This document shows, piece by piece, positions 2,661 through 34,364 of a stretch of 46,199 nt of DNA. A program made the translations under genes and the position numbers. Below the pieces are notes generated by a model, which saw nothing but the letters and a program-made list of their open reading frames with translations, made no database searches and was not told the origin of the DNA. Positions within the stretch are counted from its first letter, which is position 1. Every line of letters begins with the position of its first letter. Source of the DNA: Candidatus Daviesbacteria bacterium (GTDB lineage Bacteria > Patescibacteriota > Microgenomatia > Daviesbacterales > UBA10151); NCBI GenBank assembly GCA_016183265.1, contig JACPEX010000027.1, positions 1 through 46,199 of the forward strand, in the 5' to 3' direction.

Positions 2661-2718
2661 TTTTTAATTTAAAATTTTATAATTGATTAGAAATTAGAAA
2701 TTAAAAATTAGAAATTTT
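2661..2718. repeat. AT-only heptamer-periodic imperfect palindrome (attagaa units)
   Basis: The sequence tttttaatttaaaattttataattg is followed by attagaa attagaa attaaaa attagaa att. The 19-mer aattagaaattaaaaatta (2692-2710) recurs exactly at 11388-11406. Confidence 0.6.
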
Positions 2719-2722
2719 CTTT

Positions 2723-2827
2723 ATGATGTATTCACCTAAATTTAAAATCTTTTGGATAATTTTATCCGTCATTGCCGGCCTGGCAATTATCCTTTTTTCC
2801 CTCTTTCCGCTTCTCAGTGCATTCTAA
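2723..2827 (+). CDS. possible 34-aa single-TM micropeptide
   Basis: Open frame MMYSPKFKIFWIILSVIAGLAIILFSLFPLLSAF* in the tyrS-recG gap. It is below the ORF-track length cutoff. The only support is the open frame plus one hydrophobic helix. Confidence 0.25.
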   Translation: MMYSPKFKIFWIILSVIAGLAIILFSLFPLLSAF

Positions 2828-2843
2828 GTAGTATAATTCCTTC

Positions 2844-4847
2844 ATGGAACTGCAAACTTCTCTTTCGCAAATTACCGGCATTGGACCGGGGCTACTATAT
2901 AAACTCAAAAGGCTGAATTTAAATACCATAGAGGATTTAATTTATCATTTTCCTTTCAGGTATGATGATTTTTCCAATACTACCTCTGCTTTGGAAGCCC
3001 AGATAGGGGAGACTGTTACCCTGCAAGGGGAAATTTGGTCCATCCAAAACATCTATACCAGGTCCAGGAAAATTATTACCAAGGCTGTATTTAATGACGG
3101 AACTTCACCTATTGAACTTACCTGGTTTAACTCATCCTGGTTAACCAAGCAAATACAAACAGGGGACAGGTTACAGGTTTCAGGAAAAATTACTAAATAT
3201 AAAAACAAAATTTCTATAATTGCCCCCAGATGGGAGAAGGCAGACCACCTGGAAGGAGTCAGGGCCCACCTTCCAGGTGTACATACGGGCAGGTTAGTGC
3301 CGGTTTATCCTGAAACAGAAGGTCTTTCTTCCAAGTGGCTGAGGACCAAAATAGATAAAATCCTCCCGCAAATATTAGACAAACTTCAGGATCCGTTACC
3401 GGATGAAATCAGGAAAAATATGTTGAAATTAAATGAGGCAATCAAAAAAGTTCATTTTCCGGAAAGTTGGGAGCAGGCAGAAAAAGCCCGGGAAAGATTA
3501 GGTTTTGATGAATTATTTTATGTCTCTTTAGCAACACAAAAAGCCAGACTGGAGTGGAAAAACAAACCATTGGTTGAACCCTTAAAAATTAAGCCTTCTG
3601 ATTTAAAAAAGTTTCTAAATAAATTGCCGTTTAAATTGACTAATGCCCAACAAAAAGTCCTTAAAGAAATTTTAGATGATTTAGAAAAGAACCAACCAAT
3701 GAACAGGTTAATTCAGGGTGAAGTTGGCTCAGGGAAAACTGTGGTAGCTGCCATCATCGCCTATTTAGTCCATTTAAATAATTTAAAAACTTTATTTATG
3801 GCCCCTACGGAAATTCTGGCCTTTCAACACTTCGAAACACTTAAAAAACTTGGTATAAATGTGGGAATTTATACAGGCAGTAAAAAAGGGGAAGATGGGG
3901 ATGTTTTCGTAGGCACACATGCATTATTAAATAAGGAAATACAGGATGTAGGTTTAGTTATAATAGATGAACAACAACGTTTTGGAGTGCAACAAAGAAG
4001 CATCTTGCGTTCCAAAGCCAAAGTCCCGCACTTTTTAACTATGACAGCAACACCCATCCCAAGAACCATCGCACTAACTTTATACGGAGATTTGGATATG
4101 TCAGTGATTAACGAACTACCTAAAGGCAGGCAGATTGTTAAAACTTTTGTGGTTCCGGAAAAAAAGCGGCAGGATTCTTATAAATTTATTGCCAAAAAAG
4201 TTAGCGAAGGCGATCAGGCTTATATTATTACCCCCTTAATTGAGGCTTCAGAAACACTCTTGTCAGTAAAGGCTGCCAAAGTGGAATTTGAAAAACTGAA
4301 AAAAATATTTCCCAATTTAAGACTGGATTTACTGCATGGCCGGATGAAAGGCGCAGAAAAAGAAAAAATTATAAAAGATTTCCGCTCGGGCAAAACCCAT
4401 ATCCTGATTTCTACTTCGGTCGTGGAAGTCGGCATGGACAACCCCAATGCTACCATCATGGTTATTGAGGGGGCTGAAAGGTTTGGTTTATCACAATTGC
4501 ACCAGCTTAGGGGCAGGGTAGGCAGGGGAACAAAAGAATCTTTCTGTTTACTATACACATCAAATTCTTCCAAAGATGAACAAAGCAGGTTAAAATATTT
4601 GGAAACTACTTTTGACGGCTTAAAATTGGCTGAGCTGGATTTAAAAATCCGGGGCAGCGGACAAATTTTCGGCATCATGCAATCTGGCAGGTTTGAATTT
4701 AAAATCGCCTCTTTTTCCAATTTAGCACTTCTTGAGAAAACTAAGCAGGAAGCCCAAAAATTATTAAGCGCAGATCCAACTCTTGACAAACATCCCAGGC
4801 TTGCCGCAAAATTACAACAGATTGCATCCGGCGTCATGCCGGACTAG
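2844..4847 (+). CDS. recG: ATP-dependent DNA helicase RecG
   Basis: 667 aa. Walker A GEVGSGKT, DEQQRFG box, QLHQLRGRVGRG motif VI, and an N-terminal wedge/OB-like region. Confidence 0.9.
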   Translation: MELQTSLSQITGIGPGLLYKLKRLNLNTIEDLIYHFPFRYDDFSNTTSALEAQIGETVTLQGEIWSIQNIYTRSRKIITKAVFNDGTSPIELTWFNSSWLTKQIQTGDRLQVSGKITKYKNKISIIAPRWEKADHLEGVRAHLPGVHTGRLVPVYPETEGLSSKWLRTKIDKILPQILDKLQDPLPDEIRKNMLKLNEAIKKVHFPESWEQAEKARERLGFDELFYVSLATQKARLEWKNKPLVEPLKIKPSDLKKFLNKLPFKLTNAQQKVLKEILDDLEKNQPMNRLIQGEVGSGKTVVAAIIAYLVHLNNLKTLFMAPTEILAFQHFETLKKLGINVGIYTGSKKGEDGDVFVGTHALLNKEIQDVGLVIIDEQQRFGVQQRSILRSKAKVPHFLTMTATPIPRTIALTLYGDLDMSVINELPKGRQIVKTFVVPEKKRQDSYKFIAKKVSEGDQAYIITPLIEASETLLSVKAAKVEFEKLKKIFPNLRLDLLHGRMKGAEKEKIIKDFRSGKTHILISTSVVEVGMDNPNATIMVIEGAERFGLSQLHQLRGRVGRGTKESFCLLYTSNSSKDEQSRLKYLETTFDGLKLAELDLKIRGSGQIFGIMQSGRFEFKIASFSNLALLEKTKQEAQKLLSADPTLDKHPRLAAKLQQIASGVMPD

Positions 4848-4925
4848 AAAGCTTTCAGCTATCAGTCGTCAGTCGTCAGACTTTTATTTTTTAAGTCTGA
4901 AAGCTGACAGCTGAAGACTGACTAC
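4847..4925. repeat. heptamer-periodic imperfect hairpin (tcagtcg / ctgaaag units) between recG and rpmF
   Basis: Left arm: tcagctatcagtcgtcagtcgtcagactt. Loop: ttatttttt (4884-4892). Right arm: aagtctgaaagctgacagctgaagactga. The 8 bp core tcagactt/aagtctga is perfect; the outer stem pairs with about one mismatch per 7-mer. Confidence 0.7.
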
Positions 4926-4933: not shown

Positions 4934-5128
4934 ATGGCTGGAGAACCAAAGAGAAGACATTCTAAAGCAAGAAAAAGGACAAGAAGAGCGTCTATTAATT
5001 TAGCGGTAAATCTTGTGGCTTGTAAAAACTGCGGCACACTTATTAAATCTCACATGGTTTGTATCAGCTGCGGTTTCTACGGCGGCAAACCGGTTAAAAT
5101 GGAACAGGTTAAAGTAACAAAGGCTTAA
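4934..5128 (+). CDS. rpmF: 50S ribosomal protein L32
   Basis: 64 aa. Basic N-terminus (PKRRHSKARKRTRRA) plus a CKNCG...CISCG zinc ribbon. Confidence 0.85.
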   Translation: MAGEPKRRHSKARKRTRRASINLAVNLVACKNCGTLIKSHMVCISCGFYGGKPVKMEQVKVTKA

Positions 5129-5152
5129 ACTAATCTTGTTTTCTTGAAATTT

Positions 5153-6163
5153 CTACGATTTTTCCTGTTTTGTAACTGTAAAAGTGATTAATTTATTTTG
5201 TGAAAAATCTAAAGCCAAAAGAGCTAAATCCGCTGCTGGCGCAGCAGCTTCCTGGTCACCTCGATTAAGATGCTTTTCCCCTTCCGCTGTTGCCCAAGCA
5301 CCGATGAAGCTTGCAGCCAACCGCCAATCACCACTATAAAACTTTCTCCCAAGTTCTCCTGATAATTGAAAAAGGTCCGCAAATAATTTTTTATAGCCTT
5401 CTAATAAATCAAGACTTTCAGGAGTAAGTTCTTTAAACTGTCTGAGATTACTTACATCCTTCACCAAAGTCTCATATGCTGCAGAAATTGCTTCATTACT
5501 AGGTGATTTTTCTAAAAAAGGCTCTCTTAGAATATTAGGATTAAGTTGTTTTACATCTGATCTAACTATACCTGCCATTGAAAGCAAATCATCCAAATTC
5601 CTGACATTAAACTTTACTAGAAACAACTTATTATTTGCGTCTTTGCATACTCTAAAACCAATTAAGCGCCCTTCTTCCGTAGGCCCGCCGCCAAACAATG
5701 TAAAATATCCCTCCTCCAAAATCCCATCTGGGTTGGACTTATTTAAAGTGGCAACTTGTTTTCCTGTTCTATCAAAAATATCTACACCATTAGTTGAACC
5801 CAAATCCTTGATTGCTATTTTACCGTTAATGGGGGGTTGTAACTCAAAATGCCTGCGGGAAACAGCAAGCTCCGACATACAATTACCATCCTGATCAGGA
5901 TCAACGGCGACTTGGACATCTACCACAGAAGTATTTCTTCCAAATACCAAGGGTTTGTCTCTAAGAAATAGCGCCTGTCCTGCTCCCCAAGCTTTTCCAT
6001 CCCAAATATGATCATTTTGCTCTTCCCAATTGGCAATAGCATCCAAAGGCATGACTCTCTCTGTTGAAAAATGACCACTGGGCTGAAATAAACCATCCCG
6101 ATAATCACTCACTCTGAATGGCTTCTCTTGCGAGGCCTCCTCACGTCCTGGTTCTGATGACAT
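5153..6163 (-). CDS. FHA domain-containing protein with an uncharacterised C-terminal half
   Basis: 336 aa. FHA signature: LVFGRN...VSRRHFELQPPINGKIAIKDLGSTNGVDIF. The C-terminal ~170 aa were not recognised. Confidence 0.6.
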   Translation of the reverse strand: MSSEPGREEASQEKPFRVSDYRDGLFQPSGHFSTERVMPLDAIANWEEQNDHIWDGKAWGAGQALFLRDKPLVFGRNTSVVDVQVAVDPDQDGNCMSELAVSRRHFELQPPINGKIAIKDLGSTNGVDIFDRTGKQVATLNKSNPDGILEEGYFTLFGGGPTEEGRLIGFRVCKDANNKLFLVKFNVRNLDDLLSMAGIVRSDVKQLNPNILREPFLEKSPSNEAISAAYETLVKDVSNLRQFKELTPESLDLLEGYKKLFADLFQLSGELGRKFYSGDWRLAASFIGAWATAEGEKHLNRGDQEAAAPAADLALLALDFSQNKLITFTVTKQEKS

Positions 6164-6197
6164 AATACATAACTATTGTAGTTAATATATTAAAGTA

Positions 6198-6225
6198 TTG
6201 CAAATATCTTTTTTTGAATTAAAAT
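6198..6225 (+). promoter_or_regulatory. candidate sigma70-type promoter for nusB (TTGCAA-16-TAAAAT), -10 box ends 6 nt before the ATG
   Basis: TTGCAA at 6198-6203, TAAAAT at 6220-6225, ATG at 6232. Confidence 0.4.
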
Positions 6226-6231
6226 AAATAG

Positions 6232-6597
6232 ATGAAGAGAAAATCTGACCCCAGGCATCTCAAGCGGATTAAAATCATGCAGGAGTTATTTTCCTGGCAG
6301 TTTAAGTCAGACAAAAAACCAAGACCCTTAATTAGTCCAATAGTTTCCAAACTGTCTAAAATTGATAAATTAATTGCCCGATCTGCCCCTGACCGGCCGA
6401 TTGCCGGGATCAACAGGATTGATTTATCCATCTTGCGTTTAGCGGTTTTTGAGTTGATAATAGAAAAAGGGGTACCGCCTAAGGTGGTAATTGATGAAGC
6501 AGTGGAACTGGGCAAAGAATACGGGTCAGACTCATCAGCCGGTTTTATCAATGGCGCTTTAGGAAAATTAGTTGCGCTTGAAAAAATCATCATATGA
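6232..6597 (+). CDS. nusB: transcription antitermination factor NusB
   Basis: 121 aa. RIDLSILRLAVFELI...PPKVVIDEAVELGKEYGSDSSAGFINGALGKL is a typical NusB core. Confidence 0.8.
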   Translation: MKRKSDPRHLKRIKIMQELFSWQFKSDKKPRPLISPIVSKLSKIDKLIARSAPDRPIAGINRIDLSILRLAVFELIIEKGVPPKVVIDEAVELGKEYGSDSSAGFINGALGKLVALEKIII

Positions 6598-6830
6598 ATA
6601 AAGAACTTGAAATTATGAAAGCAATTGCCGAACATTTGGGTCTTAATCCGGAAGACCTGGACAGGAATGCTCTACTCCGCGAAGAACTGAATTTAGGCCC
6701 GATAGAACTGGATGAGCTACTTACAGAACTCTCGCAAAAATTTGATGTCACTTTCAACCCGGCTGAAACAGAAAATTTAAAAAAGGTTGATGACTTAATT
6801 GTTTTGGTTGAGGATAATTTATTAGAATAA
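6594..6830 (+). CDS. acyl-carrier-protein-like 4-helix protein lacking the phosphopantetheine serine
   Basis: 78 aa. It aligns by eye with ACP: ELNLGPIELDELLTELSQKF versus [20 protein letters not shown]. The DSL serine position is Pro here. Start overlaps the nusB stop (ATGA). It sits directly upstream of rnc, as acpA does in Bacillus. Confidence 0.5.
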   Translation: MNKELEIMKAIAEHLGLNPEDLDRNALLREELNLGPIELDELLTELSQKFDVTFNPAETENLKKVDDLIVLVEDNLLE

Positions 6831-6855
6831 TTTTAATACTGAGTGTAATCGAAGT

Positions 6856-7542
6856 ATGCATAATGAATTTGACACACTTCTTAATCTGCTTGGAATAAAA
6901 TTCAAAAATCCCAAAATTTTACAACAGGCCTTTTTGCATAGGTCTTATTTAAACGAGGTCAAGCTGGATATGGCCTCAAATGAACGCCTGGAGTTTTTAG
7001 GCGATTCGGTTTTATCTTTAGTCACCTCTCATTACCTTTATAATGCCAGGACTACTGATGCGGAGGGCGAACTAACTAATCTACGGGCCCACATTGTCAA
7101 AACTCAATCCTTGGCCCAGGCAGCTAAAAAACTAAACTTAGGCAAATACTTAAAATTATCCAAAGGGGAAGAGCTCTCAGGAGGAAGAGAAAACCTGCAG
7201 CTTTTGGCCAATACTTATGAAGCAATGCTGGGGGCGATTTTTTTAGATCAGGATCTAACAGTTACCAAAGAAGTTGTCAGTCGAACTCTGCTCGCTCTTT
7301 TTGAAAAAGAATTAAGAATCGGCCCCCCTAAAGATGCCAAATCAAACCTGCAGGAATTGGTCCAGCAAAAGCTAAAAGTTTCCCCGCATTACAAAATTTT
7401 GGAAACTCGGGGCCCGGATCATGCCAAACAATTTACTGTAGCAGTATACATAGAAGGAAAAGAGATGGGCAAAGGTACAGGCCTCAGTAAACAAGTAGCA
7501 GAAGAGCAGGCAGCCAATAAAGCTTTGCAGCAATTGACTTAA
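6856..7542 (+). CDS. rnc: ribonuclease III
   Basis: 228 aa. ERLEFLGDSVL catalytic signature plus a C-terminal dsRBD (GPDHAKQFTV...). Confidence 0.9.
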   Translation: MHNEFDTLLNLLGIKFKNPKILQQAFLHRSYLNEVKLDMASNERLEFLGDSVLSLVTSHYLYNARTTDAEGELTNLRAHIVKTQSLAQAAKKLNLGKYLKLSKGEELSGGRENLQLLANTYEAMLGAIFLDQDLTVTKEVVSRTLLALFEKELRIGPPKDAKSNLQELVQQKLKVSPHYKILETRGPDHAKQFTVAVYIEGKEMGKGTGLSKQVAEEQAANKALQQLT

Positions 7543-7569
7543 TCTCCTGCGATCTATATACTAAACAGC

Positions 7570-7974
7570 ATGCTAAAAATACGGTTAATGAGAATCGGTG
7601 CCAAACAAAAACCCTTTTATAGGGTAGTGGTGGTTGATGAACGGACCAAAAGAACCGGCGCTTATATTGAACTATTAGGAACCTATAACCCCTTAACGGA
7701 ACCAAAGGATATAAAATTAAAACAAGACAGGATTGATTACTGGATCAAACAAGGGGCACAACTTTCTAGCGGATATTTAAGAATTATTGGTAAGGCCCCG
7801 CAAAGGCCGCCCAGAAAACCTAAAAAAGAGAAAAAGCCTGAGTCATCAGCTATCAGTCCTCAGCCGTCAGATCAAAAAGTAGAAGAAATCAAACAAGAAG
7901 AACAGACAGAAACATCAATTCCAGCTGAACCAGAGACAACACAAGAAGAAAAAAAGGAGAAGTCTGAAAGCTGA
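7570..7974 (+). CDS. rpsP: 30S ribosomal protein S16 with ~50-aa acidic/lysine-rich C-terminal extension
   Basis: [41 protein letters not shown] is a canonical S16 core. The extension runs from about residue 80. Confidence 0.9.
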
Positions 7975-7995
7975 AAGCTGAAGACTGAAAGCTTC
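7842..7995. repeat. two inverted heptamer-periodic arms bracketing the S16 C-terminal extension
   Basis: 7842-7870: tcatcag ctatcag tcctcag ccgtcag. 7961-7995: agtctgaaag ctgaaag ctgaaga ctgaaag ct. Same unit family as the recG/rpmF hairpin. The right arm spans the S16 stop codon. Confidence 0.6.
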
Positions 7996-7996
7996 T

Positions 7997-8248: not shown

Positions 8249-8296
8249 GATTTATGAATAATGATTTATGATCTTAAATCCTAAATCGTAAATCAC
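8247..8296. repeat. heptamer-periodic imperfect hairpin (atttatg / taaatc units) between the KH gene and trmD
   Basis: atttatg aataatg atttatg | cttaaat cctaaat cgtaaat. The core gattta(8263-8268)/taaatc(8275-8280) is perfect. Confidence 0.6.
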
Positions 8297-8297
8297 T

Positions 8298-9032
8298 ATG
8301 AAGTTTTCTATTATTACTTTGTTTCCGGAAGTTTTTGAGCCCATCTTAAATTCATCGATCTTAAAACGCGCCCAAAAAAAAGGCTTGGTAGAATTTGAGC
8401 TCATAAATCTCCGTGATTTCGGGGAAGGCAAACATCAAGTAGTTGATGACCGTCCTTATGGCGGTGGAGCGGGAATGGTTTTTAAAGCTGATGTTTTAGC
8501 AAAAGCATTAAAAAGTGTCTACAGTCTACAGTCTACCGCAAAAAGCAGTAGTCGGCTCGCCTCGCGAAGCGGGAAGTCTGTAGTCGGTAGTCAAATTGTC
8601 TTGATGTCTGCTTCCGGAACCCCATACAAACAGGCAGAAGCCCGAGAGTTATCTAAATTAAGTCATATCATTATTATTTGCGGACATTATGAAGGGGTGG
8701 ACCAAAGATTTATAGACAAATATGTTTCGGAGGAAATTTCAATCGGGGATTATGTTTTAACCGGCGGAGAAATCCCGGCCATGGTAATAGTTGATTCAAT
8801 TACCAGATTAATTCCCAGAGTTTTAGAGAAACCGGAAGCAACTCAAGAAGAATCTTTTTCCCAAGGGCTTTTGGAATATCCGCAATATACCAGGCCTGAG
8901 GAATTTGAGGGAGAAAAAGTACCAGGGGTTCTACTATCCGGAAATCATGCCGAAATAAAAAAATGGCGGTCTGAAAAATCTTTAGAAAAAACCAAAAAAG
9001 TAAGACCTAACCTACTCAATCAAAAGGATTAG
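8298..9032 (+). CDS. trmD: tRNA (guanine37-N1)-methyltransferase TrmD, with a repeat-derived ~16-20 aa insertion
   Basis: 244 aa. VDDRPYGGGAGMV, CGHYEGVDQR, IGDYVLTGGEIPAMV and LLSGNHAEIKKWR all match TrmD. The extra SVYSLQSTAKSSSRLASRSGKSVVGSQ lies in the interdomain linker. Confidence 0.9.
   Translation: MKFSIITLFPEVFEPILNSSILKRAQKKGLVEFELINLRDFGEGKHQVVDDRPYGGGAGMVFKADVLAKALKSVYSLQSTAKSSSRLASRSGKSVVGSQIVLMSASGTPYKQAEARELSKLSHIIIICGHYEGVDQRFIDKYVSEEISIGDYVLTGGEIPAMVIVDSITRLIPRVLEKPEATQEESFSQGLLEYPQYTRPEEFEGEKVPGVLLSGNHAEIKKWRSEKSLEKTKKVRPNLLNQKD
8517..8592. repeat. composite repeat inside trmD: ctacagt heptamer arms enclosing a GC-rich 20-mer
   Basis: gtctacagtctacagtctacc ... GGCTCGCCTCGCGAAGCGGG (8554-8573) ... 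agtctgtagtcggtagtc. The arms are imperfect inverted 7-mers (Kgtagwc). Confidence 0.6.
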
Positions 9033-11282: not shown

Positions 11283-11406
11283 CTTAATAAATTTTAAATT
11301 TTAAATTTTTAATTTTTATTCAATTTTTAATAATTAAATTTTTAATATTTTAAACATTAATACATTTAAATTTGATTTAAAATTTCAAATTAGAAATTAA
11401 AAATTA
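11283..11406. repeat. AT-only heptamer-periodic tract (aaatttt / aaattag units) between pilM and the downstream large pilus gene
   Basis: aaattttaaattttaaatttttaatttttattcaattttt ... atttaaatttgatttaaaatttcaaattagaaattaaaaatta. Its last 19 nt are identical to 2692-2710. Confidence 0.55.
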
Positions 11407-13185: not shown

Positions 13186-13753
13186 TTCTCAAACTTGCCT
13201 CCGAGGTGGCCGTGCTGGTTTCAGAATCAGCGCCAAACTGTTGTTTCAAAACCAAAGTAGTCCTGACTTTAGTGGCGCTTGGCGGAATTACTTCAACCGG
13301 AGGAGTAGCAGAATTAAAATATTGGAAATTTATATTATCAACTGAGGAGGAAAAAACCCGATCCTGGGCCTTCCTGGAACTTAAAGAATCCGGAAGAATT
13401 TTAAATTTTAAGAAGTGTTGATCTAGGGAGAAAACAAAGTAATCAAAGGTATTATCAATAATATTACCGGAAGTATCTATTGAAGATACTCTTAAAACAA
13501 GCTGGTTGGCGCTGCTGGTATCCGCTATGCCGGTTGCCTGCTTAATACTGCTCCTGATTTCTGATAAAGCATCATTCATATTCAGGCCTTCCTGGACTTT
13601 TGAGGATTGTTTAGAAAATAAACCAACGCTATTGACAATAATTACCAACAGTAAAACTCCGGCAACTGTGGCAATCCCCACGGCAATTAAAACCTCTATT
13701 AAAGTCAATCCATAATTTCTTACACTTTGCACTCTGCACTTTGCACTTTTCAC
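13178..13753 (-). CDS. prepilin-type minor pilin
   Basis: 191 aa. Leader MKSAKCRVQSVRNYG then LTLIEVLIAVGIATVAG (class III signal, Glu at +5). The GTG start overlaps the upstream stop (GTGA). Confidence 0.7.
   Translation of the reverse strand: MKSAKCRVQSVRNYGLTLIEVLIAVGIATVAGVLLLVIIVNSVGLFSKQSSKVQEGLNMNDALSEIRSSIKQATGIADTSSANQLVLRVSSIDTSGNIIDNTFDYFVFSLDQHFLKFKILPDSLSSRKAQDRVFSSSVDNINFQYFNSATPPVEVIPPSATKVRTTLVLKQQFGADSETSTATSEASLRND
13723..13753. repeat. heptamer tandem (cactttg cactctg cactttg cactttt) encoding a prepilin leader peptide
   Basis: Four imperfect 7-mers on the plus strand. On the minus strand they translate as KSAKCRVQS of the leader. Confidence 0.6.
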
Positions 13754-14145
13754 TGATTTATCCCTTCTTCTCCGATCAAAGTATTTAAATTTATATTTTG
13801 CGCTTTGTTGTTATCTACCCAGGAAACTGTAACCGTCACCTGTTTAATGGGCTCATCATTTGCACAAATAGCAGCCGGACAATCTTCCACAACTACTGTA
13901 CCAACGCCTTGAGGCAATAAGCTAAGGCGGGAATCAGAAATTGCACTATTGTCATTAACTAAATTAGAATAGTTTATATTTCTTTTATCCTCTATCTGCT
14001 TAACAGCTATTTCCCGTGCCAAACTGACATGCCGGGCTTTACTAATTAGCATCAAGGCATTTGGGATATTGGCCAGCAAGAAAACTATTGATCCTATTAT
14101 TACCACAACTAATAGGGATTCAATGAGCGAAACGCCTTTTTCCAT
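13750..14145 (-). CDS. prepilin-type minor pilin
   Basis: 131 aa. MEKG then VSLIESLLVVVIIGSIVF. Confidence 0.7.
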   Translation of the reverse strand: MEKGVSLIESLLVVVIIGSIVFLLANIPNALMLISKARHVSLAREIAVKQIEDKRNINYSNLVNDNSAISDSRLSLLPQGVGTVVVEDCPAAICANDEPIKQVTVTVSWVDNNKAQNINLNTLIGEEGINQ

Positions 14146-15052: not shown

Positions 15053-15724
15053 TTATCTTAACCCAATTGTGGTCTGAAATGTAACTGGATCAATTTGACT
15101 GGTAATTGCAGAAGAAGCACTAACCCCCGGTTTTAAATTAAACTTAATTGTAACTTGATCCTTGGCTCCCGCGGGTTTATCTCTGGTAAAGACTGGCGGG
15201 GGGTTTATACTGCAATCAGACGCAGGACATTCCACTGAAACCCCTGACTGTTCATTAGTATCAGTCAAGACAGTAGGATTAACCATTGGATCGGTACAAA
15301 CGCTGTTAATAAATGATTGGATATCTGTCGGAGCAGGGGTAGGTGAATTTTGGGCACAAGGAGTAGACGGATCCGGTTGTGGGTTATCTTGTTGAATTTG
15401 ACCATTTTGAGTTGGACTTGGAACTATAAATTTGTATCTGGTATAACAGCCGTTTTTTACGATCACCAAAGTATTGGAAGGATTTCCTAGTGTTGGACAT
15501 ATTACATTATCCGAATTTCTAACATTTTTATCCATAGTCTCCAAAACTGCCTGGCCGTTTTGTTTGATCACAGCCAATATTTGTGATTTATTGCTGCCTC
15601 TTAAAGTATTAGTAAAAATCACCACCAATATTGCCCCCACAATAGAAGTAATCGCCATTACTACCAGTATTTCAGCCAAGGTAAATGCACTAGAATTTTT
15701 ATTAAAGCCTGATTCTTGATTCAT
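15053..15724 (-). CDS. prepilin-type minor pilin
   Basis: 223 aa. Leader MNQESGFNKNSSA then FTLAEILVVMAITSIVGAIL. The first codons (aatcaagaatca) are a partial copy of the ttcttga/gaatcaa heptamer family. Confidence 0.7.
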   Translation of the reverse strand: MNQESGFNKNSSAFTLAEILVVMAITSIVGAILVVIFTNTLRGSNKSQILAVIKQNGQAVLETMDKNVRNSDNVICPTLGNPSNTLVIVKNGCYTRYKFIVPSPTQNGQIQQDNPQPDPSTPCAQNSPTPAPTDIQSFINSVCTDPMVNPTVLTDTNEQSGVSVECPASDCSINPPPVFTRDKPAGAKDQVTIKFNLKPGVSASSAITSQIDPVTFQTTIGLR

Positions 15725-15729
15725 AATTC

Positions 15730-16353
15730 TTACAGCTTTCTTAGTATTGTTGTCAATTTTGATTCATGGTCCCCGGCAAAGTCTGTCCAGGTCACTATGA
15801 CTGTAACTTTTTTTTGGGTAGTATAGCTAGTAGAATCATCAGATAAAATAACTACCCGTTTAAAATTAGGCGGTATTAATTGTGAACCATTTACAGGAAA
15901 AGACGATCCATTTATAAAATAATTCAAGACCCCCGTATCTGCGATATTAAAATAACAATTGGGGTTCAGTTGATTACTACAAGCAGAATTTATTTGATAA
16001 GTCCAGATAGATCCGGTACCAACACAACTAGTATCGCTGCTATTACCATTCCATGAATTTACATTTGTTAATCCAGTAATACATTCATTCCTATCCCTGC
16101 CAGCCCTGACCCTTTCTATTCCTTCCTGGGCCAACTTTGTAGCCTGGGCGCTGTTTTTGGCAAAGCTGGCATTCCTTAAAGAGAAAATAGTGGCAAAAGT
16201 CAAAGCTGTCACCACCAAAATCCCGACCGCCGCAGCTACAATAACTTCTATTAAAGACTGCCCCTGTTCAGAATTAAGAATTAAGCGGTAAGAATTAAGC
16301 TTAAAAAGCTTCATTCTTGATTCTTGATTCTTAATTCTCATATTATTGCGCAT
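15730..16353 (-). CDS. prepilin-type minor pilin with an unusually long, repeat-encoded leader
   Basis: The mature part starts at QSLIEVIVAAAVGILVV after ...NSEQG. The ORF track starts at 16374. ATG at 16353 follows a strong SD (AAGGAGGGAGG) and is my preferred start. Alternative starts are 16341 and 16314. Confidence 0.65.
   Translation of the reverse strand: MRNNMRIKNQESRMKLFKLNSYRLILNSEQGQSLIEVIVAAAVGILVVTALTFATIFSLRNASFAKNSAQATKLAQEGIERVRAGRDRNECITGLTNVNSWNGNSSDTSCVGTGSIWTYQINSACSNQLNPNCYFNIADTGVLNYFINGSSFPVNGSQLIPPNFKRVVILSDDSTSYTTQKKVTVIVTWTDFAGDHESKLTTILRKL
16271..16337. repeat. 31-bp imperfect heptamer-periodic hairpin (gaattaa / ttcttga units) within the leader-peptide coding region
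   Basis: gaattaagaattaagcggtaagaattaagctt aaaa agcttcattcttgattcttgattcttaattc. The arms are complementary with about one mismatch per 7-mer. Confidence 0.7.
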
Positions 16354-19936: not shown

Positions 19937-19969
19937 ATTTTATGCTATTTCAGATGTTATACTTTAAAT

Positions 19970-21888: not shown

Positions 21889-21909
21889 GTACTCAAATTT
21901 AGATTATTC

Positions 21910-28150: not shown

Positions 28151-28758
28151 GACTGCTGATTTGTCCGGATGTTGCAAAGATTAAAGAAGAAATAGCTTTA
28201 CACCTCGAAGGCGTCAAGCTAAATCATCCTGATGTTTTATATTTTAAAGTAGGAGAAAAATTGGGGATTGCCGAAGCCAGAAAAATTAAAGAACACTTTT
28301 CCTTAAAGCCTTATTCAGCAAAAGGGAGAAGTGTAATTATAGAAGATGCTTCAGTCATGACGGTTGAGGCTCAGAATGCTCTTTTGAAAACTATTGAAGA
28401 ATTGCCCAAAGAAGCAATCTTGATTTTTGGAACCCCGTCTGATGCCAATTTCTTGCCTACAATTTTATCAAGATGCGAGATAATTAGAATCAAGGATGAC
28501 GAATTAAGAATTAAGGAGGGTAAAGAAGATGTAGAAAAATTACTTGAAGCAACAATTGAACAAAGATTTGAGTATGTAGAAAAATTGAAAAACAGGGAAG
28601 AATTTTTGCAGGCCTTAGTTTGGTATTTTCACCAGCATTTATTGGAGTACCCAAAGTTTACCAAAGAGCTTCTGCAGGCAGAAAAATTAGCCAAGCAAAA
28701 TGTCAATATCAGGGCAATTTTAGAATATCTAATGCTGGTAATGCCTATGCCAAAATGA
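28141..28758 (+). CDS. holB: DNA polymerase III delta'-like clamp-loader subunit (short form, no Walker A)
   Basis: 205 aa. VIIEDASVMTVEAQNALLKTIEE and the TILSRCEII (SRC) motif. TAAAAT ends 6 nt upstream of the ATG. Confidence 0.6.
   Translation: MIARLLICPDVAKIKEEIALHLEGVKLNHPDVLYFKVGEKLGIAEARKIKEHFSLKPYSAKGRSVIIEDASVMTVEAQNALLKTIEELPKEAILIFGTPSDANFLPTILSRCEIIRIKDDELRIKEGKEDVEKLLEATIEQRFEYVEKLKNREEFLQALVWYFHQHLLEYPKFTKELLQAEKLAKQNVNIRAILEYLMLVMPMPK
28499..28516. repeat. partial copy of the gaattaa heptamer family inside holB
   Basis: gacgaattaagaattaagg matches the left arm of the 16271-16337 hairpin. It encodes DELRIKE. Confidence 0.4.
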
Positions 28759-30720: not shown

Positions 30721-30723
30721 CTT

Positions 30724-30753
30724 CCCACCCTCCAGGTGGATTAGCTTGACACC
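30724..30753. repeat. REP2 hairpin copy (CCACC-ctcca-GGTGG core with the extended arm on the right side)
   Basis: cccaccctccaggtggattagcttgacacc. The right flank is the reverse complement of the ggtgccaagctaat flank seen at 42529 and 43289. Confidence 0.7.
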
Positions 30754-30801
30754 TCTTCTTTTCTCGCATTAGAAAGGTAAAGATCATATAATATAACTCA
30801 T

Positions 30802-32050
30802 ATGTCTAAAAAAATTCATTTTTTAGGAATTGGGGGGAGCGGGGCGTCGGCAGTAGCGGCAATAGCCGAAGCCCAGGGTTTTAAAATCACAGGATGTGAT
30901 TTAGAGCCCAATAACGAATTTACAACACAATTTAATAGTTTACTTGTAGGTCATGATCCTAGCCACTTAACAAATATTGATATTTTGGCAACCACTCCTG
31001 CCATTTTTTCTTTAGACCCAAATAACCCAGAATTAGTCGCTGCTAAAGAAAAGGGTATTCCAGTGATGACTTGGCAGCAATTTTTAGGGGAATACTTGGT
31101 TAAGGGCAAATTTGTGATAGCCGTTGCCGGCACTCATGGAAAATCAACCACCACTGCCATGATTGCCCAACTTTTAGAGGATGCCAGATTAGACCCAACA
31201 GTCGAACTAGGAGCAATTGTGCCAAAATGGGGCTCAAATTATCGAATTGGCAAAAGTAAATATCTTGTGGTAGAAGCAGATGAATTCAATGATAATTTTT
31301 TGCATTTAAAACCGGATATTACCGTTGTTACTAATATTGAAATGGATCACCCTGAATATTTTAAGGATTTTGAGGCAGTTAAAAGTAGTTTTAAAAAGTT
31401 TTTACTGCAAACAAAAAGCACCATCATTGCAAATTTGGCAGATCCTGGAGTAAAACAAACTTTAGTCTTACACCCCAAGGGTGTAAATATAACTATTGAT
31501 TATTCAAAACATCTCATAGATTTTCCATTACAAATCCCCGGGCAATTTAATATCTTAAATTCCTCTGCCGTTTTTCAAGTAGGACTAATTTTAGGAATTG
31601 ATCCTGCTGTTATTAAAGAGAGCTTACAAAATTATAAGGGGGTTGGCAGAAGGTTTGAGTATATTGGGGAATATAATGGAGCCAAAGTTTATTCTGATTT
31701 TGGTCACCACCCCACAGAAATTGAAGTTACCATTAATGCAGCCAGGGAAAAATTTCCCAATCAAAAAATCATCATGGTCTACCAACCGCATATGTTTTCA
31801 AGGACCAAGGCTTTATTTGCTGATTTTGTGAAGGTTTTCCAAAACCTGCCGGCTGATAAAATATTTATCATTGATATTTATCCTTCCAGGGAAATAGATA
31901 CCGGTCAATCGACCTTCAGTTTTATATGCGGGATCTGCTACAAAAACTTTAGAAAAAATTAAACCGGAAATAAAACCAGGAGATATTGTTTTCTTTATGA
32001 GCGCAGGAGATACAGATAAATTAGCTAAAGAGCTCGTCACAGCGAAGTAA
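30802..32050 (+). CDS. murC: UDP-N-acetylmuramate--L-alanine ligase MurC, interrupted by a +1 frame change near 31898-31935
   Basis: GIGGSGASAVA and the P-loop AGTHGKSTTTAM. Frame 1 ends at 31962 in non-MurC sequence (QSTFSFICGICYKNFRKN*). The next frame reads VNRPSVLYAGSATKTLEKIKPEIKPGDIVFFMSAGDTDKLAKELVTAK* (stop 32048-32050), which is a typical MurC C-terminus. Confidence 0.8.
31468..31486. repeat. REP1 hairpin copy 3, in frame inside murC
   Basis: ttacaccccaagggtgtaa encodes LHPKGV. Confidence 0.7.
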
Positions 32051-34364
32051 CATATTTTTTAAATTGGTTTCCCCTGTCTGCATAATCCTTGAACAAATTA
32101 AAACTACTTGACGCCGGCGAGAGAAGAACTATTTTACCGGGGCTTGTATGTTCAAAAGCCAGTTCAACGGCATCTTTCATATTATTTACATTAAAATACT
32201 TGATACTTGATACTTGATACTTGATACATGCTTGTTTTATTTTTTCTCCTGTATCCGGAAATAGAATTAAATTTTTTATATTAGATTTTGCTATGGCTTC
32301 TCCCAAAATAGAGTAATCAATACCCCTATCAAAACCTCCGGCAATTAATGTTTCAACATTTTCACCTAAAGCTTGCAACGCTCCAATTGTTGCCTGTGGA
32401 ATTGTAGCCAAAGAATCATTGTAAAATTTGATCCCTCTAAATTCTCCTACAAATTCTAGCCTGTGGGGGAGGGGCTTAAAATTTTTGATTGCCTGGTCAA
32501 TTTCCTCCTGCGGAATGTCAAACAGTTTTCCTATAATTTTGGCTGGGGAGGAATCATCTAAACCATTTTGGGTAAAAGGTATTTTCATTGCTCTATTTTC
32601 TATTGCAACATCTTTGTTGCAGATTAAATAATCTTGTTCTGTTTGGTATTTAGTAATATTACTTTTAGCTGCAAAATACGCTGATAAATTTCCGTGATGG
32701 TCCAAATGTTCTGGATAAAAATTAGTCATTACTGCAATATGCGGGCTTTTAGTTAAACCCTCCAGTTGAAAAGAGGATAGTTCATAAACCACCACAGAAT
32801 TTTCATTTAACTCATCCAATAGATCCAAGGCTGGTTTGCCAATATTGCCTATTACATGCGCATCTATTCCACCAGTTTTTAGAACTTCATAAATCAAAGA
32901 GGACGTGGTACTTTTGCCTTTGGTACCGGTAACCCCGATAATTTGACCCTTAAAATTATCAAAAAATATTTGTGTAGCTGAGGTAATAGTTTTTCCTTCA
33001 TTTTGGGCTTTTCTAATTTCCGGCAAATAAGGAATACCGGGGGATTTAATAATCACATCATAATCTTTTAACTTGTCTAAATAATTTTCTCCATCACTTT
33101 TATCTGTAATGCCGATTTCTGTATTGGGAAAATGCTTTTTATAATAATTTAGAGTTGCCTTGCCTTCCCGCCCAAACCCTAAAATTAAAACTTTCTGGTT
33201 AATTAATGAAAGTGCAGTCTTTATTTCCTCAACTGTTGCAACACATTCAAAAGGCTTAACGACATCATTTTCCCTAAGCAGCCCTTTGATAATTGGTTCT
33301 AAACTTTTGTCTTCTAATAAATTTTTTCCAAAAATTTCGTCTGTTTTCTTGCCTAAAAATGGATAGAGGAGAATATATGTTGAAACACATTTTGGACATT
33401 TACCACACCATATTCCTTGCTTGGAACCGCGGTTACAGCTTCTAAAAATCTTGTGGTATTTTTCCATTTTGGAAAACATCTCGGATATCTGCAGTTCACC
33501 AAAAGATCTTAAATAACTAAAATAATTGGCAGAAGAAGCCAGATATTTACTAGAATAATCCCTAAAGTCTTTTTCAAATTCAGAAGTTTTAGAATACTGG
33601 TGGTTAATTTCCTGACCCATCCAGGTAACATTGCCCTCGTTGGAAGAAGCCTCATTAGAGACAACCAGATTTTTATAATCATATAAAACACCCGTTAGGA
33701 CAGAAAGAAAAGCCAGATATGCAGAAAAAGGGGTATGGCCATTTAAATATCCCTGGGCATTTAATTCCAGTAATTTTGGATCAATTATTCTTTTGATAAT
33801 TATTGAATTCTTACAGCCTCCAGCTTCTGCCATTTTTATTGCAGCTTCAGTTGGATTTAAAAGAAGACAACTATATTCTTTGCCTTTACTAATCGACTCC
33901 AGTGTTACAGCAGAATCTTTGCCGCCCCCAACCATTACCAAATCCCGGTCTTTCAACTCTCCATCAAATTTAGCCTGCAACCTGGAAGGTTGCCGCACAA
34001 ATTCCACTAAATCTTCTTTTGTAAAATCAATTTTATTGGTGTAGAAAAATTCCCCTAAACCTTTTATTAAAAGCTTCTTCCAGAACTTGATTTGGTCTTC
34101 ATCCAAATCACCTGCCTTAATAATAATTTGTTTAGGGCAAGCTGCTTTCCAATAGCTTAAAAGCTCAACCATTCCAAGATTAAAAACTAAATTATCTATG
34201 TTTCCCGGATTTTTGACATTAGGAAATATCACTTGGGGTTTAAACCTAATATCAGGAGTTAGCAAAAAGTCAAAAGTAACGTGAAGGTAGCCATTTTCCT
34301 GCTCGATTTTATACCCCTCAAAGACAAGCTGTTGGTGTTTCTGCCTTAATTTATTAAAATCCAT
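32037..34364 (-). CDS. murD: fusion protein: N-terminal PP-loop ATP-pyrophosphatase-like domain (MurL-like candidate) + C-terminal UDP-MurNAc-L-Ala--glutamate ligase (MurD family)
   Basis: 775 aa. C-terminal half: KVLILGFGREGKA, GVTGTKGKSTTSSL, NFYPEHLDHHG, PHRLEF, YNDSLATIP (MurD). N-terminal ~390 aa: VGGGKDSAV (SGGxDS-like PP-loop) and a Cys cluster SCNRGSKQGIWCGKCPKCVSTY. Confidence 0.75.
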   Translation of the reverse strand: MDFNKLRQKHQQLVFEGYKIEQENGYLHVTFDFLLTPDIRFKPQVIFPNVKNPGNIDNLVFNLGMVELLSYWKAACPKQIIIKAGDLDEDQIKFWKKLLIKGLGEFFYTNKIDFTKEDLVEFVRQPSRLQAKFDGELKDRDLVMVGGGKDSAVTLESISKGKEYSCLLLNPTEAAIKMAEAGGCKNSIIIKRIIDPKLLELNAQGYLNGHTPFSAYLAFLSVLTGVLYDYKNLVVSNEASSNEGNVTWMGQEINHQYSKTSEFEKDFRDYSSKYLASSANYFSYLRSFGELQISEMFSKMEKYHKIFRSCNRGSKQGIWCGKCPKCVSTYILLYPFLGKKTDEIFGKNLLEDKSLEPIIKGLLRENDVVKPFECVATVEEIKTALSLINQKVLILGFGREGKATLNYYKKHFPNTEIGITDKSDGENYLDKLKDYDVIIKSPGIPYLPEIRKAQNEGKTITSATQIFFDNFKGQIIGVTGTKGKSTTSSLIYEVLKTGGIDAHVIGNIGKPALDLLDELNENSVVVYELSSFQLEGLTKSPHIAVMTNFYPEHLDHHGNLSAYFAAKSNITKYQTEQDYLICNKDVAIENRAMKIPFTQNGLDDSSPAKIIGKLFDIPQEEIDQAIKNFKPLPHRLEFVGEFRGIKFYNDSLATIPQATIGALQALGENVETLIAGGFDRGIDYSILGEAIAKSNIKNLILFPDTGEKIKQACIKYQVSSIKYFNVNNMKDAVELAFEHTSPGKIVLLSPASSSFNLFKDYADRGNQFKKYVTSL
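32197..32230. repeat. perfect tandem heptamer (tacttga x4 plus a partial unit) inside the MurD-domain coding region
   Basis: tacttgatacttgatacttgatacttgatacatg. It translates on the minus strand as IKYQVSSIKY. Confidence 0.7.

Follow-up and report, generated by a model that had tools for sequence, protein, structure and literature searches.

The stretch of DNA analysed here, referred to below as the window, is a contig of 46,199 nucleotides from a Candidatus Daviesbacteria bacterium of the Candidate Phyla Radiation (CPR; contig JACPEX010000027.1, assembly GCA_016183265.1), and our subject is the set of short tandem arrays of 7-nt units (heptamer arrays) that are scattered through it. The window has a G+C content of 38% and carries trpS, recG, rpmF, rnc, rpsP, a KH-domain gene, and trmD in its 5′ part; further genes are pilM with a long series of pilin-like genes, a holB-like gene, murD, and two genes for IS200-like Y1 transposases. 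A tRNA scan of the window found no tRNA, and no family reached its gathering score in an Rfam scan. An earlier note, made from the letters of the window alone, had described at least ten loci with such arrays as a dispersed family of heptamer-periodic imperfect palindromes.

The closest TrmD protein in a one-genome-per-species selection of GTDB is at most 78% identical to that of the window, and the best 50 or so matches come from metagenome-assembled genomes (MAGs) of Candidatus Daviesbacteria or Microgenomates. A metagenome scan gave no relative above 78% TrmD identity, and an exact-protein look-up returned only members of the window's own population. Because no closer relative of the window was available, the presence and absence of arrays was read from other pairs of Daviesbacteria. 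In particular, we used a set of 55 Daviesbacteria-like loci (1.02 Mb in total; loci are labelled L001 and so on) and a second, independent set of 53 metagenome loci (444 kb). In the window, arrays were called with Tandem Repeats Finder (TRF) at a score of at least 30.

Period-7 rows make up 17 of the 44 TRF rows of the window and cover 10 of the 12 intervals listed in the earlier note. These 17 arrays compare with a mean of 1.4 and a maximum of 6 in shuffled sequence (a 12-fold enrichment), and 10 arrays of at least 28 nt were observed against 0.01 expected. Moreover, seven exact period-7 runs were found where 100 dinucleotide shuffles gave 0.13, and exact runs of no other period between 4 and 15 showed a comparable enrichment. 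At least ten distinct heptamer units are present in the 46 kb. Three Logan assemblies from other sequencing runs match positions 4960-8674, 7414-8966, and 7316-8536 at 99.97-100% identity and free of gaps; between them they span the tracts at 7842-7870, 7961-7995, 8247-8296, and 8517-8592, the third contig stopping at 8536 inside the trmD array. Since these independent assemblies are identical there, the tracts at 7842-8592 are not assembly artefacts, as judged at the level of contigs; the window's population is present in runs SRR12113431, SRR12113385, and SRR12113419. The idea that the arrays are a chance product of A/T-rich composition, or of assembly, can draw on the low-complexity A/T sequence at 11283-11406 and on one period-7 TRF row in recG (3166-3184, or 3159-3179 in another scan) that is plain conserved coding sequence, QTGDRLQVSG, and that we rejected as a module. 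The shuffle controls, the enrichment of period 7 alone, the identity of the independent assemblies, and the recurrence of the pattern in related loci refute this idea, and we regard its probability as practically negligible.

Period-7 tracts are present at every locus of the earlier note (Table 1), though weak at 15709-15723 and degenerate in the holB-like gene, and the description of one architecture made from different 7-mers is borne out. The claim that unit types recur at distant loci likewise stands: the arms at 4893-4921 and 7960-7988 are 97% identical, the sequences at 2669-2710 and 11365-11406 are 79% identical, those at 15704-15732 and 16305-16333 are 86% identical, and the AAGAATT unit at 16270 occurs again at 28482, where the array has a unit distance of 0 to that at 16270-16299.

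Table 1. Heptamer modules and REP-like palindromes in the window (REP, repetitive extragenic palindrome; ORF, open reading frame).
Feature	Position	Strand	Context and composition
Single array (ATTAGAA) x4.4	2686..2716	+	Spacer from trpS stop (2660) to next start codon (2724); TRF score 55
Hairpin module	4849..4924	+	recG-rpmF spacer; arms (TCAG-N3) x4 at 4855-4882 and (N3-CTGA) x4 at 4893-4921; T-rich loop
Left arm (TCAG-N3) x4	7842..7870	+	Inside rpsP; encodes SSAISPQPS at start of acidic S16 C-terminal tail
Right arm (CTGA-N3) x4.3	7960..7993	+	Across rpsP stop codon (KSES-stop); ends 3 nt 5′ of KH start codon 7997; called by TRF
Hairpin module	8250..8294	+	Fills KH-trmD spacer; GATTTAT-type units against TAAATCN units; TRF rows 8241-8277 and 8271-8294
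Composite module	8517..8592	+	In frame in trmD (aa 74-98); (GTCTACA) x2.9 at 8517-8536; AAGTC-TGTAGTC-GGTAGTC at 8574-8592
A/T-rich arrays	11288..11406	-	(TAAATTT)n at 11288-11354, degenerate; (ATTAAAA) x4.6 at 11375-11406; called by TRF
Single array, sense (AAAGTGC) x4.6	13723..13754	-	Leader VKSAKCRVQS of pilin-like ORF 13178-13753; TRF score 50
Weak three-unit array, sense AAGAATT/ATGAATC/AAGAATC	15710..15731	-	Start codon and leader (MNQES) of pilin ORF 15053-15724; TRF score 30, 3.1 copies
Hairpin module in leader	16270..16338	-	37-residue leader MRIKNQESRMKLFKLNSYRLILNSEQG/QSLIEV of pilin-like ORF 15730-16374
Degenerate array (AATTAAG) x5	28482..28515	+	In frame in holB-like ORF 28141-28758 (aa 114-125; Pfam DNA_pol3_delta2); TRF score 33, 71% matches
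Perfect array (ATACTTG) x4.6, sense (CAAGTAT)n	32196..32227	-	In frame in MurD C-terminal domain; encodes CIKYQVSSIKY; TRF 100% matches, score 64
REP-like palindromes flanking Y1 genes	21884-21939, 22596-22651, 42519-42560, 43279-43320
REP-like palindromes, orphan copies	31462-31486, 38761-38816, 30722-30762

Five loci in the window fold or pair as hairpins. The best folds relative to shuffled sequences are those of 4847-4925, 8247-8296, and 16268-16340, each with a z score of about -5, followed by the weaker fold of 8514-8595 (z -3). The recG-rpmF hairpin has an RNA folding energy of -31.2 kcal/mol (z -5.3), and with its right arm ending at 4921 the module lies about 12 nt before the rpmF start codon (4934). 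The module between the KH gene and trmD has a z of -5.6. In the hairpin at 16270-16338 the arms 16309-16338 and 16270-16299 surround AAGCTT-N5-AAGCTT, forming an inverted repeat of 33 nt that is 82% complementary (-24.7 kcal/mol, z -5.2), and in the trmD module a GC-rich palindrome, GCTCGCCTCGCGAAGCGGG, is nested at 8555-8573 (z of the whole module -3.0). The fifth case is the pair of arms in and after rpsP: in both the minimum-free-energy and the centroid folds 7960-7993 pairs with 7842-7870 across a 90-nt loop and covers the KH AUG. We rejected this long-range hairpin as a significant structure, since the energy of the region is no better than that of shuffles (z -1.0). The single arrays within 2661-2718, 13720-13756, 28478-28520, and 32190-32235 are unstructured; z is -1.2 for the ATTAGAA array, which forms no hairpin, and -1.6 for the array at 13723-13754. 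Thus the earlier statement that the units usually face an inverted set of complementary 7-mers holds for the three loci with z about -5 and for the one with z -3, and is overstated for the four single arrays and the S16 pair; about half of the listed loci are single arrays and do not fit the description as palindromes.

Several of these sites have their own local context. The array at 13723-13754 overlaps the stop of ORF 13750-14145; the ORF that it opens, 13178-13753, has an N_methyl motif with the cleavage motif G/LTLIEVL after the leader, and L002 carries a perfect (AAAGTGC) x4.4 array at the equivalent position. The arrays at 11288-11406 occupy the spacer from the stop of ORF 11404-13185 to the pilM start (11260). 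In MurD, comparison with structure 3lk7 gives a net insertion of only 3 residues, which argues that the array overlies normal coding sequence. (Note that only the C-terminal 388 residues of the 775-aa ORF 32037-34364 on the minus strand are MurD; the N-terminal 390 or so residues have weak, sub-threshold Pfam matches only, to DUF6395 and Sacchrp_dh_NADP, and we take the ORF for a fusion or else for two genes that run together for want of an intervening stop codon.) The best sigma-70-like match of the first 20 kb, TTGACA-18-TAAAAT (11 of 12 positions, 2646-2675 on the plus strand), lies directly 5′ of the ATTAGAA array; as judged by this consensus match, the array would fall in a 5′ untranslated leader. 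Beside the pilin cluster is an uncharacterised 526-aa ORF (17919-19499), and positions 18001-20000 are a local minimum in G+C (30.6% compared with about 39% elsewhere).

The same kind of array is abundant throughout the lineage. In the 55 relatives, period-7 arrays occur at 26 per 100 kb compared with 3-4 for periods 6 and 8, and the 263 arrays found there represent 137 distinct units when rotations and strands are merged. The independent set contains 91 period-7 arrays, compared with 13 of period 6 and 34 of period 8, and overall the pattern was seen in at least 100 related loci. Twenty Firmicutes loci obtained with the same query have 0-3 arrays each. Other CPR loci with arrays include L060, in which a perfect (AAATCCG) x4.4 array lies in the TrmD loop, and L064, and a MAG labelled Chloroflexota (L075) carries arrays too. 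The length of the arrays has a sharp mode at 30-33 nt, equal to 4.3-4.9 copies, whereas periods 6, 8, 9, 10, and 12 simply decay with length; a mode at 28-35 nt is peculiar to period 7. Perfect period-7 arrays are bimodal, with one class of 15-21 nt that is near background and another of 29-34 nt; almost none measure 22-26 nt and none exceed 36 nt.

A complementary partner array (at least 12 of 14 bases, within 150 nt) accompanies 50 of the 263 arrays in the relatives, compared with 7-15 in three controls; here too, then, the palindromic form applies to a minority. Paired modules have a loop of about 7-17 nt and a total length of 70-80 nt. Variants among the units of an array cluster at one position of the unit, with 191 variable positions compared with 227 expected and none of 2000 simulations giving a value as low. 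Sites within one genome share units more often than permutation predicts (69 pairs, compared with a permuted mean of 32.6 and maximum of 50), at about twice the rate seen between genomes. GC-rich mini-palindromes were also seen, centred in heptamer modules or alone in coding loops, examples being GCTCGCCTCGCGAAGCGGG, which has the motif GCGAAGC, and CCTGCCTGCCGGCAGGCAGG. They occur at 8555-8573 in the window, in the trmD loop of L010, in the recG loops of L028 and L035, in the KH-trmD spacer of L019, and in recG of L125, and they look like a distinct family of very small inserts.

Arrays are concentrated between genes, with 95 intergenic arrays compared with 17.3 expected, yet 114 of 258 lie inside ORFs called by a crude ORF finder. 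The earlier note had placed the elements at gene ends, in cleaved leader peptides, and in frame inside conserved proteins, and each of these locations is found: gene ends and spacers at 2686, 4855, 7960, 8250, and 11288-11406; leaders in the prepilin ORFs 13178-13753, 15053-15724, and 15730-16374; and coding sequence in TrmD, S16, MurD, and HolB. Across genomes, the arrays within genes are in frame in prepilin leaders, the disordered acidic S16 tail, the TrmD and RecG loops, MurD, and HolB. Intergenic arrays start at a median distance of 4 nt from the preceding stop codon and mostly leave 7-15 nt (median 15) before the next start, so that the array essentially constitutes the spacer between co-directional genes. 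Tandem, convergent, and divergent junctions occur at their genomic frequencies (convergent, 4 of 69), so that there is no terminator or promoter bias. On the sense strand the arrays have 40% A compared with 32%, and 14% G compared with 21%.

The conclusion of the earlier note that the arrays are not terminators, CRISPR arrays, or REP elements was confirmed. No hairpin module is among the hits of a terminator scan, hits occur at the level of chance (21 compared with 19.7), and the T-run of 4847-4925 lies in its loop; the units are 7 nt long and contiguous, without the spacers of a CRISPR array; and the arrays are distinct from the REP elements of this genome, described below. We also considered that intergenic arrays might supply stops in all three frames, and rejected this role: stop-containing units are equally frequent in sense (43 of 67) and antisense (43 of 67), so their excess over random 7-mers is an ascertainment effect of the definition of intergenic.

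Comparison of orthologous sites reveals how the arrays come and go. Daviesbacteria TrmD has a hypervariable insert after LAKALKS that Firmicutes TrmD lacks; depending on the species it is an array of about 31 nt made of different units, often 100% perfect (AAAAGTC, AAAGTTC, AAAAGTG, AAAAGCT, AAATTCG, AAAAAGC, AACTACC, AACTACG). Between WEK and LHTGRLVP, basal members and outgroups have no insert in RecG; elsewhere this RecG loop holds a four-unit array (TCAG-N3, CTACCAA, CTACCGA, TCAGAAT, and others) or a short REP-like palindrome, and in the window it holds an in-frame palindrome with 11-bp arms at 3246-3280, CACCTGGAAGG-N12-CCTTCCAGGTG. (REP-like hairpins in the RecG loops of other Daviesbacteria are, for example, TTCCCAC-N7-GTGGGAA or of the CACCTCCGAGG type, and L116 and L125, which are 97% identical, differ by one extra 31-nt hairpin arm in this loop.) The KH and trmD ORFs overlap by 4 nt (ATGA, as computed) in about ten relatives, while others have unrelated heptamer or palindromic inserts of 26-98 nt; in L010 the overlap arises from an in-frame element at the KH C-terminus. 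The recG-rpmF spacer measures 3-15 nt in most relatives and contains heptamer hairpins of 70-90 nt in eight lineages, of the TCAG type in the window, L001, and L043 and with other units in L042, L045, L048, L051, and L064. At the stop of the 600-aa ORF upstream of pilM, relatives carry arrays of about 31 nt with still other units (AAATTGT, AAACTGT, AATTGAC, CTATACC, and others), and after trpS L001 and L004 have arrays of the ATTGAAA type. In the TrmD loop, after trpS, and upstream of pilM, the units of orthologous arrays are one or two substitutions apart yet internally uniform.

The tail of S16 behaves differently in part. Its four-unit left arm, (TCAG-N3)4, is found at the same place in L001, L004, L017, L025, L027, L036, L042, and L054 and, encoding S-V-V-S-P-Q-P-S, is kept at the start of the tail out to 55% TrmD identity, whereas the right arm is present only in some relatives (in L001, for example, and not in L084, which is 90% identical to it). 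S16 in Daviesbacteria has a long acidic C-terminal tail of low complexity and variable length, the protein ranging from 110 to 238 aa (rpsP is at 7570-7974 in the window), and these tails host in-frame copies of other dispersed palindromic elements, with translations such as VIASEAKQSS...SAPRNDK in L036 and ARNASQSDAGG in L002, L006, and L043. Relative to the compact ancestral junctions the modules are thus insertions rather than ancient coding sequence, with the S16 left arm as an old, conserved exception.

Pairs of close genomes show the turnover directly. L009 and L010 (93% identical over 17.6 kb by megablast, 91.5% over 18 kb by blastn) differ chiefly in small elements. The arrays in TrmD and after one ORF stop have each been exchanged for another, and the RecG loop has a REP-like hairpin in one genome but (CTACCAA)4 in the second. 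A 69-nt composite, (GTCTACC)4-GCGATTGCG-(GGAAGTC)4, is found in a pilin leader of both genomes, though not in that of the same gene, and the same pair of units, GTCTACC and GGAAGTC, recurs in the trmD insert of the window. L025 and L125 (85% identical) differ by the clean presence or absence of a perfect (AAAGTTC) x4.9 array. At filled and empty sites of L009/L010, L025/L125, and L001/L084, no target-site duplication was visible in these few cases, whose flanks are 85-93% identical. Six pairs of genomes that are 97-99.8% identical showed no single 7-nt unit gained or lost, and four assemblies of the window's own population show no change of plus or minus 7 nt and are identical across the arrays at 7842-8592; the arrays are thus not hypermutable on that time scale. 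Two larger insertions were seen in the L009/L010 pair, at 10668-12118 of L009 and 1420-2614 of L010 (1.2-1.45 kb). One contains a gene resembling that of a REP-associated tyrosine transposase (RAYT) and is bounded by CCCACCCC(A/T)GGGGTGGG hairpins; the other has three TTCCCAC...GTGGGAA hairpins, near each end and internal, the hairpin being the same as that found in frame in the RecG loop of L009.

These comparisons, which gave different or absent inserts in relatives at trmD, rpsP, and other loci, support the earlier contention that more than local slippage is at work, in that modules have been inserted into compact junctions, turn over at 85-93% identity, share units about twice as often within as between genomes, and include near-identical arms at separate loci.

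Several arrays lie near the start of pilin-like genes (first 10-90 nt), both in the window and in its relatives, which raises the thought that they are contingency loci, in which one unit more or less changes the reading frame, 7 not being divisible by 3, and phase-varies pilin-like surface proteins. Heptanucleotide repeats are reported to drive phase variation of HMW1A in Haemophilus influenzae (PMC8262952). The Daviesbacteria arrays, however, show no copy-number polymorphism in the four assemblies of the window's population or in the pairs at 97-99.8% identity, have only 4-5 units, and occur also in spacers and in essential genes (trmD, recG, murD, rpsP), which makes this a very improbable account of them.

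A different possibility is that the modules are non-autonomous miniature mobile elements, akin to miniature inverted-repeat transposable elements (MITEs) or to REPINs, moved in trans by an enzyme encoded elsewhere. The window has two IS200-like Y1_Tnp genes, at 21971-22687 and 42600-43274, both on the plus strand, whose best NCBIfam match is the REP-associated tyrosine transposase, with scores under the curated cut-off in both cases. Each is flanked on both sides by a REP-like palindrome of its own (TTACACCCCAAGGGTGTAA in one case and CCACCCTCCAGGTGG in the other, also given as ACCTCCGATTACACCCCAAGGGTGTAATCGGAGGT and TCCACCCTCCAGGTGGA). More narrowly delimited, palindromes of this kind lie at 21904-21928, 22616-22640, and 38781-38805. 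From these sequences the genes and palindromes together look like a RAYT/REPIN system in a CPR genome. A link between heptamer arrays and the RAYT-like genes was rejected, because both Y1 genes have nothing but ordinary REP palindromes beside them. A mobile origin, perhaps with the RAYT-like transposase sensing a folded single-stranded hairpin or its periodicity and no fixed sequence, would account for the discrete size of the modules (29-36 nt per arm, 70-80 nt per hairpin), for one composite residing in different genes of different genomes, for presence and absence at about 93% identity, for hairpins of several families filling the otherwise compact recG-rpmF junction, for unit sharing that is higher within than between genomes, and for the 97% identity of two arms in the window; moreover, REP-like palindromes and heptamer arrays share hot spots (the RecG loop and the recG-rpmF spacer) in different genomes. 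On the other hand, the RAYT-like genes, with their sub-threshold scores, have non-heptamer palindromes of their own, the 137 unit types have no common end sequence, the majority of arrays are single and unstructured, no target-site duplication is evident, and related, homogenised arrays at orthologous sites point to evolution in place. We therefore think a mobile-element origin unlikely. The earlier suggestion that the elements are MITE-like finds no support in a conserved terminal inverted repeat, a visible target-site duplication, or an autonomous partner with the same ends.

The arms built on TCAG and CTGA present the main case for a role on the mRNA. In five hairpins from five species the TCAG and CTGA cores are invariant at a phasing of 7 nt, whereas the 3-nt spacers vary freely and are not complementary; a test for covariation is consequently uninformative, the cores being invariant and the spacers unpaired. 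The CTGA arms end just 5′ of a start codon both at rpmF (4921 and 4934) and at the KH gene (7993 and 7997). The right arm of S16 has 38 of 40 bases in common between the window and L001 (counted by eye), although their aligned DNA is about 70-76% identical, and a 35-nt stretch at the ATTAGAA array, its variant third unit included, is identical in L005, where the flanks have diverged. Moreover, IMG/VR contains 103 instances of TCAG-N3 x4 with AC directly after it, compared with an estimate of about 2 by chance (some 50-fold), often with an inverted partner array, and the contigs concerned (G+C 37-66%) contain 234 further period-7 arrays with the same length mode, 24-35 nt. Some viral-labelled contigs are packed with heptamer-array hairpins, namely L179 (IMG/VR 3300045947_000060), L176, and L213. 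L179 has 24 period-7 arrays in 9.9 kb, at intervals of about 500 bp, with A/T-rich units, such as AGTTTTC facing CTGAAAA, in a sequence of 67% G+C; a search of L179 against annotated phages gave no match.

From this analysis an mRNA role for the TCAG/CTGA family is plausible. Extended to all of the modules, the argument would be that they are functional mRNA cis-elements, whether as phased sites for a single-strand RNA binder with a site size of about 7 nt (such as a cold-shock protein, S1, or the KH protein), as hairpins that couple or gate translation of the next gene, or as RNase III sites; the role that has been proposed for TAACTGA repeats in Beggiatoaceae would be the analogue. The invariant cores, the conserved S16 and ATTAGAA arrays, and the excess in viral contigs all favour such a role, as do the placement of intergenic arrays between stop and next start, the pairing of the S16 arms over the KH start codon, the A-rich and G-poor sense strand, the occurrence of TAACTGA (CTGA-TAA, rotated) upstream of start codons in other phyla, and the genes for RNase III and a KH protein that adjoin arrays. 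Set against this are the extreme diversity of units within one genome, which ill suits a sequence-specific binder, the many arrays within coding sequence of unrelated proteins, the rapid turnover, with arrays missing in close relatives, the lack of asymmetry between sense and antisense in stop-containing units, the lack of an Rfam match, and stems without covariation support. As a general explanation, cis-acting function is in our view improbable.

The reading we favour, to which we give about an even chance, is that the loci are genome-wide and lineage-wide tandem-array modules of the kind known as short tandemly repeated repetitive sequences (STRR) or long simple-sequence repeats (LSSR), and that they are self-propagating by-products of replication or repair rather than genes or regulatory signals. 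A module consists of 4-5 copies of a 7-nt unit (29-36 nt), about one in five adjoining a roughly complementary array to give an imperfect hairpin of 70-80 nt. Slippage or template switching in a 7-nt register would build arrays in place and keep them homogeneous, a step that is partly borne out, since orthologous sites carry related, internally uniform units and the units of one array tend to vary at a shared position. Snap-back copying, or copying primed by microhomology from another array, may then add the inverted arm and spread the favoured units of a genome to new sites, as the sharing of units within genomes, the near-identical arms at two loci of the window, and the gain, loss, and replacement of arrays between close genomes suggest. 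Selection decides only where modules survive; they persist in co-directional spacers and, always in frame, in prepilin leaders, in the tail of S16, and in variable parts of TrmD, RecG, and MurD. Finally, a minority has probably been co-opted on mRNA, in translational coupling or processing, the main case being TCAG/CTGA before rpmF and across rpsP and the KH gene. The earlier proposal of a self-templating element is possible but unproven; the arms are not unit-by-unit mirrors, and in the TCAG family complementarity does not extend to the 3-nt spacers.

Several observations weigh against an origin as replication or repair by-products. Simple slippage predicts that copy numbers fall off steadily, whereas the arrays peak sharply at 4-5 copies and leave a gap at 3.3-3.7. 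In the six pairs at 97-99.8% identity and in the four assemblies of the window's population, no array had become longer or shorter by 7 nt. Full replacement by an unrelated array at about 93% identity fits cassette-like exchange better than drift, and the conservation of some arrays beyond that of their flanks (the 35 nt shared with L005 and the 38 of 40 bases shared with L001) suggests function or recent transfer. In addition, our analysis has identified no responsible enzyme or repair pathway. Because this account does not explain the fixed length of about 31 nt and no enzyme was found, the mobile-element and cis-element readings keep appreciable weight. A further reading holds that the modules are a distinct, ultra-small class of fixed-size element defined by architecture rather than sequence, an array of about 31 nt or a pair of such arms of about 75 nt together, written by an unrecognised process of templated insertion or transposition that measures about 31 nt in 7-nt steps. 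The process would operate not only in CPR bacteria but also in many phage genomes and at least one Chloroflexota MAG, and would be able to overwrite coding sequence in frame within essential genes. We regard this as a tentative proposal, rather less than likely.

Whichever process makes them, the arrays bear on a long-standing question, since the origin of heptamer repeats has long been a guess, namely slippage of a polymerase on a 7-nt footprint. Daviesbacteria offer a natural experiment, with at least six shared sites that hold different arrays (the TrmD loop, two RecG loops, the S16 tail, the recG-rpmF and KH-trmD spacers, and pilin leaders), from which birth, homogenisation, replacement, and loss can be reconstructed, and the fixed length of 4-5 units together with the sharing of units within genomes places hard constraints on any mechanism. 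There are practical consequences as well. The arrays add 7-25 residues to conserved proteins and inflate the apparent divergence of proteins in CPR genomes, which affects annotation and phylogenomics, and they break short-read assemblies, Logan contigs beginning or ending at arrays. Among short-read contigs of the window's population, L081 starts at 4960, about 35 nt past the hairpin at 4849-4924, and L083 stops at 8536, inside the trmD array; these ends suggest that de Bruijn-graph assemblies of CPR genomes are broken up by such repeats.

In cyanobacteria, heptanucleotide repeats were already known in the early 1990s; the STRR are those of heterocystous species. The earlier note had held that the elements fit no known model; this does not stand, as tandem heptanucleotides have been described as STRR, as LSSR, and as TAACTGA repeats, according to PMC4692102 and PMC4679880. 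The same sources attribute three tandem heptanucleotides to the cyanobacterium Calothrix (STRR, cited in PMC4692102), summarise the finding of Mrazek (2007) that heptamers are the most abundant long simple-sequence repeat in most prokaryotic genomes, with polymerase slippage as the proposed cause (PMC4679880, PMC4692102), and describe inverted pairs of heptamer arrays capable of forming stem-loops in Xanthomonas and Nostoc (PMC4692102; PMC4679880). The Daviesbacteria arrays resemble STRR and LSSR in their head-to-tail 7-nt units, in the dominance of the heptamer over other lengths, in the presence of several heptamers per genome, in their mostly intergenic location and lineage-specific abundance, and in their inverted pairs. 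They differ in that the host is a CPR bacterium with a genome of about 1 Mb (related MAG contigs measure 0.74-1.1 Mb, and one chromosome 0.82 Mb) rather than the large genome of a cyanobacterium or proteobacterium, in the number of units (137 among 263 arrays), in frequent in-frame residence in conserved essential proteins, and in a length fixed at 4-5 units, a statement about the Daviesbacteria arrays that does not extend to the cyanobacterial length distribution. Variable copy number of the sort expected from slippage, which is our reading of the slippage model and no formal STRR criterion, is not seen in them.

In marine Beggiatoaceae and in some cyanobacteria and Bacteroidetes, TAACTGA repeats sit directly before start codons (MacGregor 2015, PMC4679880). 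They are heptamer arrays of 2-6 copies and, like those studied here, mostly intergenic. They end a few nucleotides before the start codon, also at ribosomal-protein genes, as do the CTGA arms before rpmF and the KH gene here; for our intergenic arrays as a whole, the commonest gap to the next start is 7-15 nt, with no strand asymmetry. Their unit contains CTGA, as does the CTGA-N3 family of the window, and one inverted pair has been reported (PMC4679880). Unlike our arrays, the TAACTGA repeats have one dominant heptamer rather than many, and their copy number falls monotonically (68, 40, 19, 2, and 1 sets in Beggiatoa for 2-6 copies; PMC4679880) rather than peaking at 4-5; their orientation bias relative to start codons is not evident for the Daviesbacteria arrays overall. 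REP/REPIN-RAYT systems (PMC3116915) share with the modules the short imperfect palindromes, the frequent hairpin pairs, the extragenic location, and the genome-specific families, but REPs have one conserved sequence per family and flank RAYT genes, whereas the modules are periodic, variable in sequence, often single-armed, and do not flank RAYT genes. In MITEs, unlike the modules, one would expect shared ends with an autonomous partner; here the arms differ wholly between families (only TCAG/CTGA shares a 4-nt core), and no autonomous partner has the same ends. Phase-variable heptamers such as those of Haemophilus influenzae HMW1A also consist of tandem 7-nt units, placed at the promoter or 5′ end of genes for surface proteins, but are long and polymorphic among isolates, whereas ours are short, of fixed length, and invariant in close comparisons.

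The small dispersed repeats (SDR) of Nostoc punctiforme, which Elhai and colleagues are said to have described in 2008, are reportedly tiny hairpin elements (21-27 nt) that are nested and often embedded in tandem heptameric repeats. The GC-rich mini-palindromes nested in heptamer modules here are similar to them, in general description rather than by a comparison of homology; unlike the heptamer arrays, which correspond to their host context, SDR families are defined by sequence and secondary structure. A full-text literature search found no paper connecting heptamer repeats with CPR bacteria or Patescibacteria. Our findings do not establish a new biological system; rather, the heptamer arrays are of the known STRR/LSSR kind and are first noted here in CPR bacteria. 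They stand apart through their host lineage, their very many unit types, a length fixed at 4-5 units, their frequent presence in frame within essential proteins, and cassette-like turnover at fixed hot spots.

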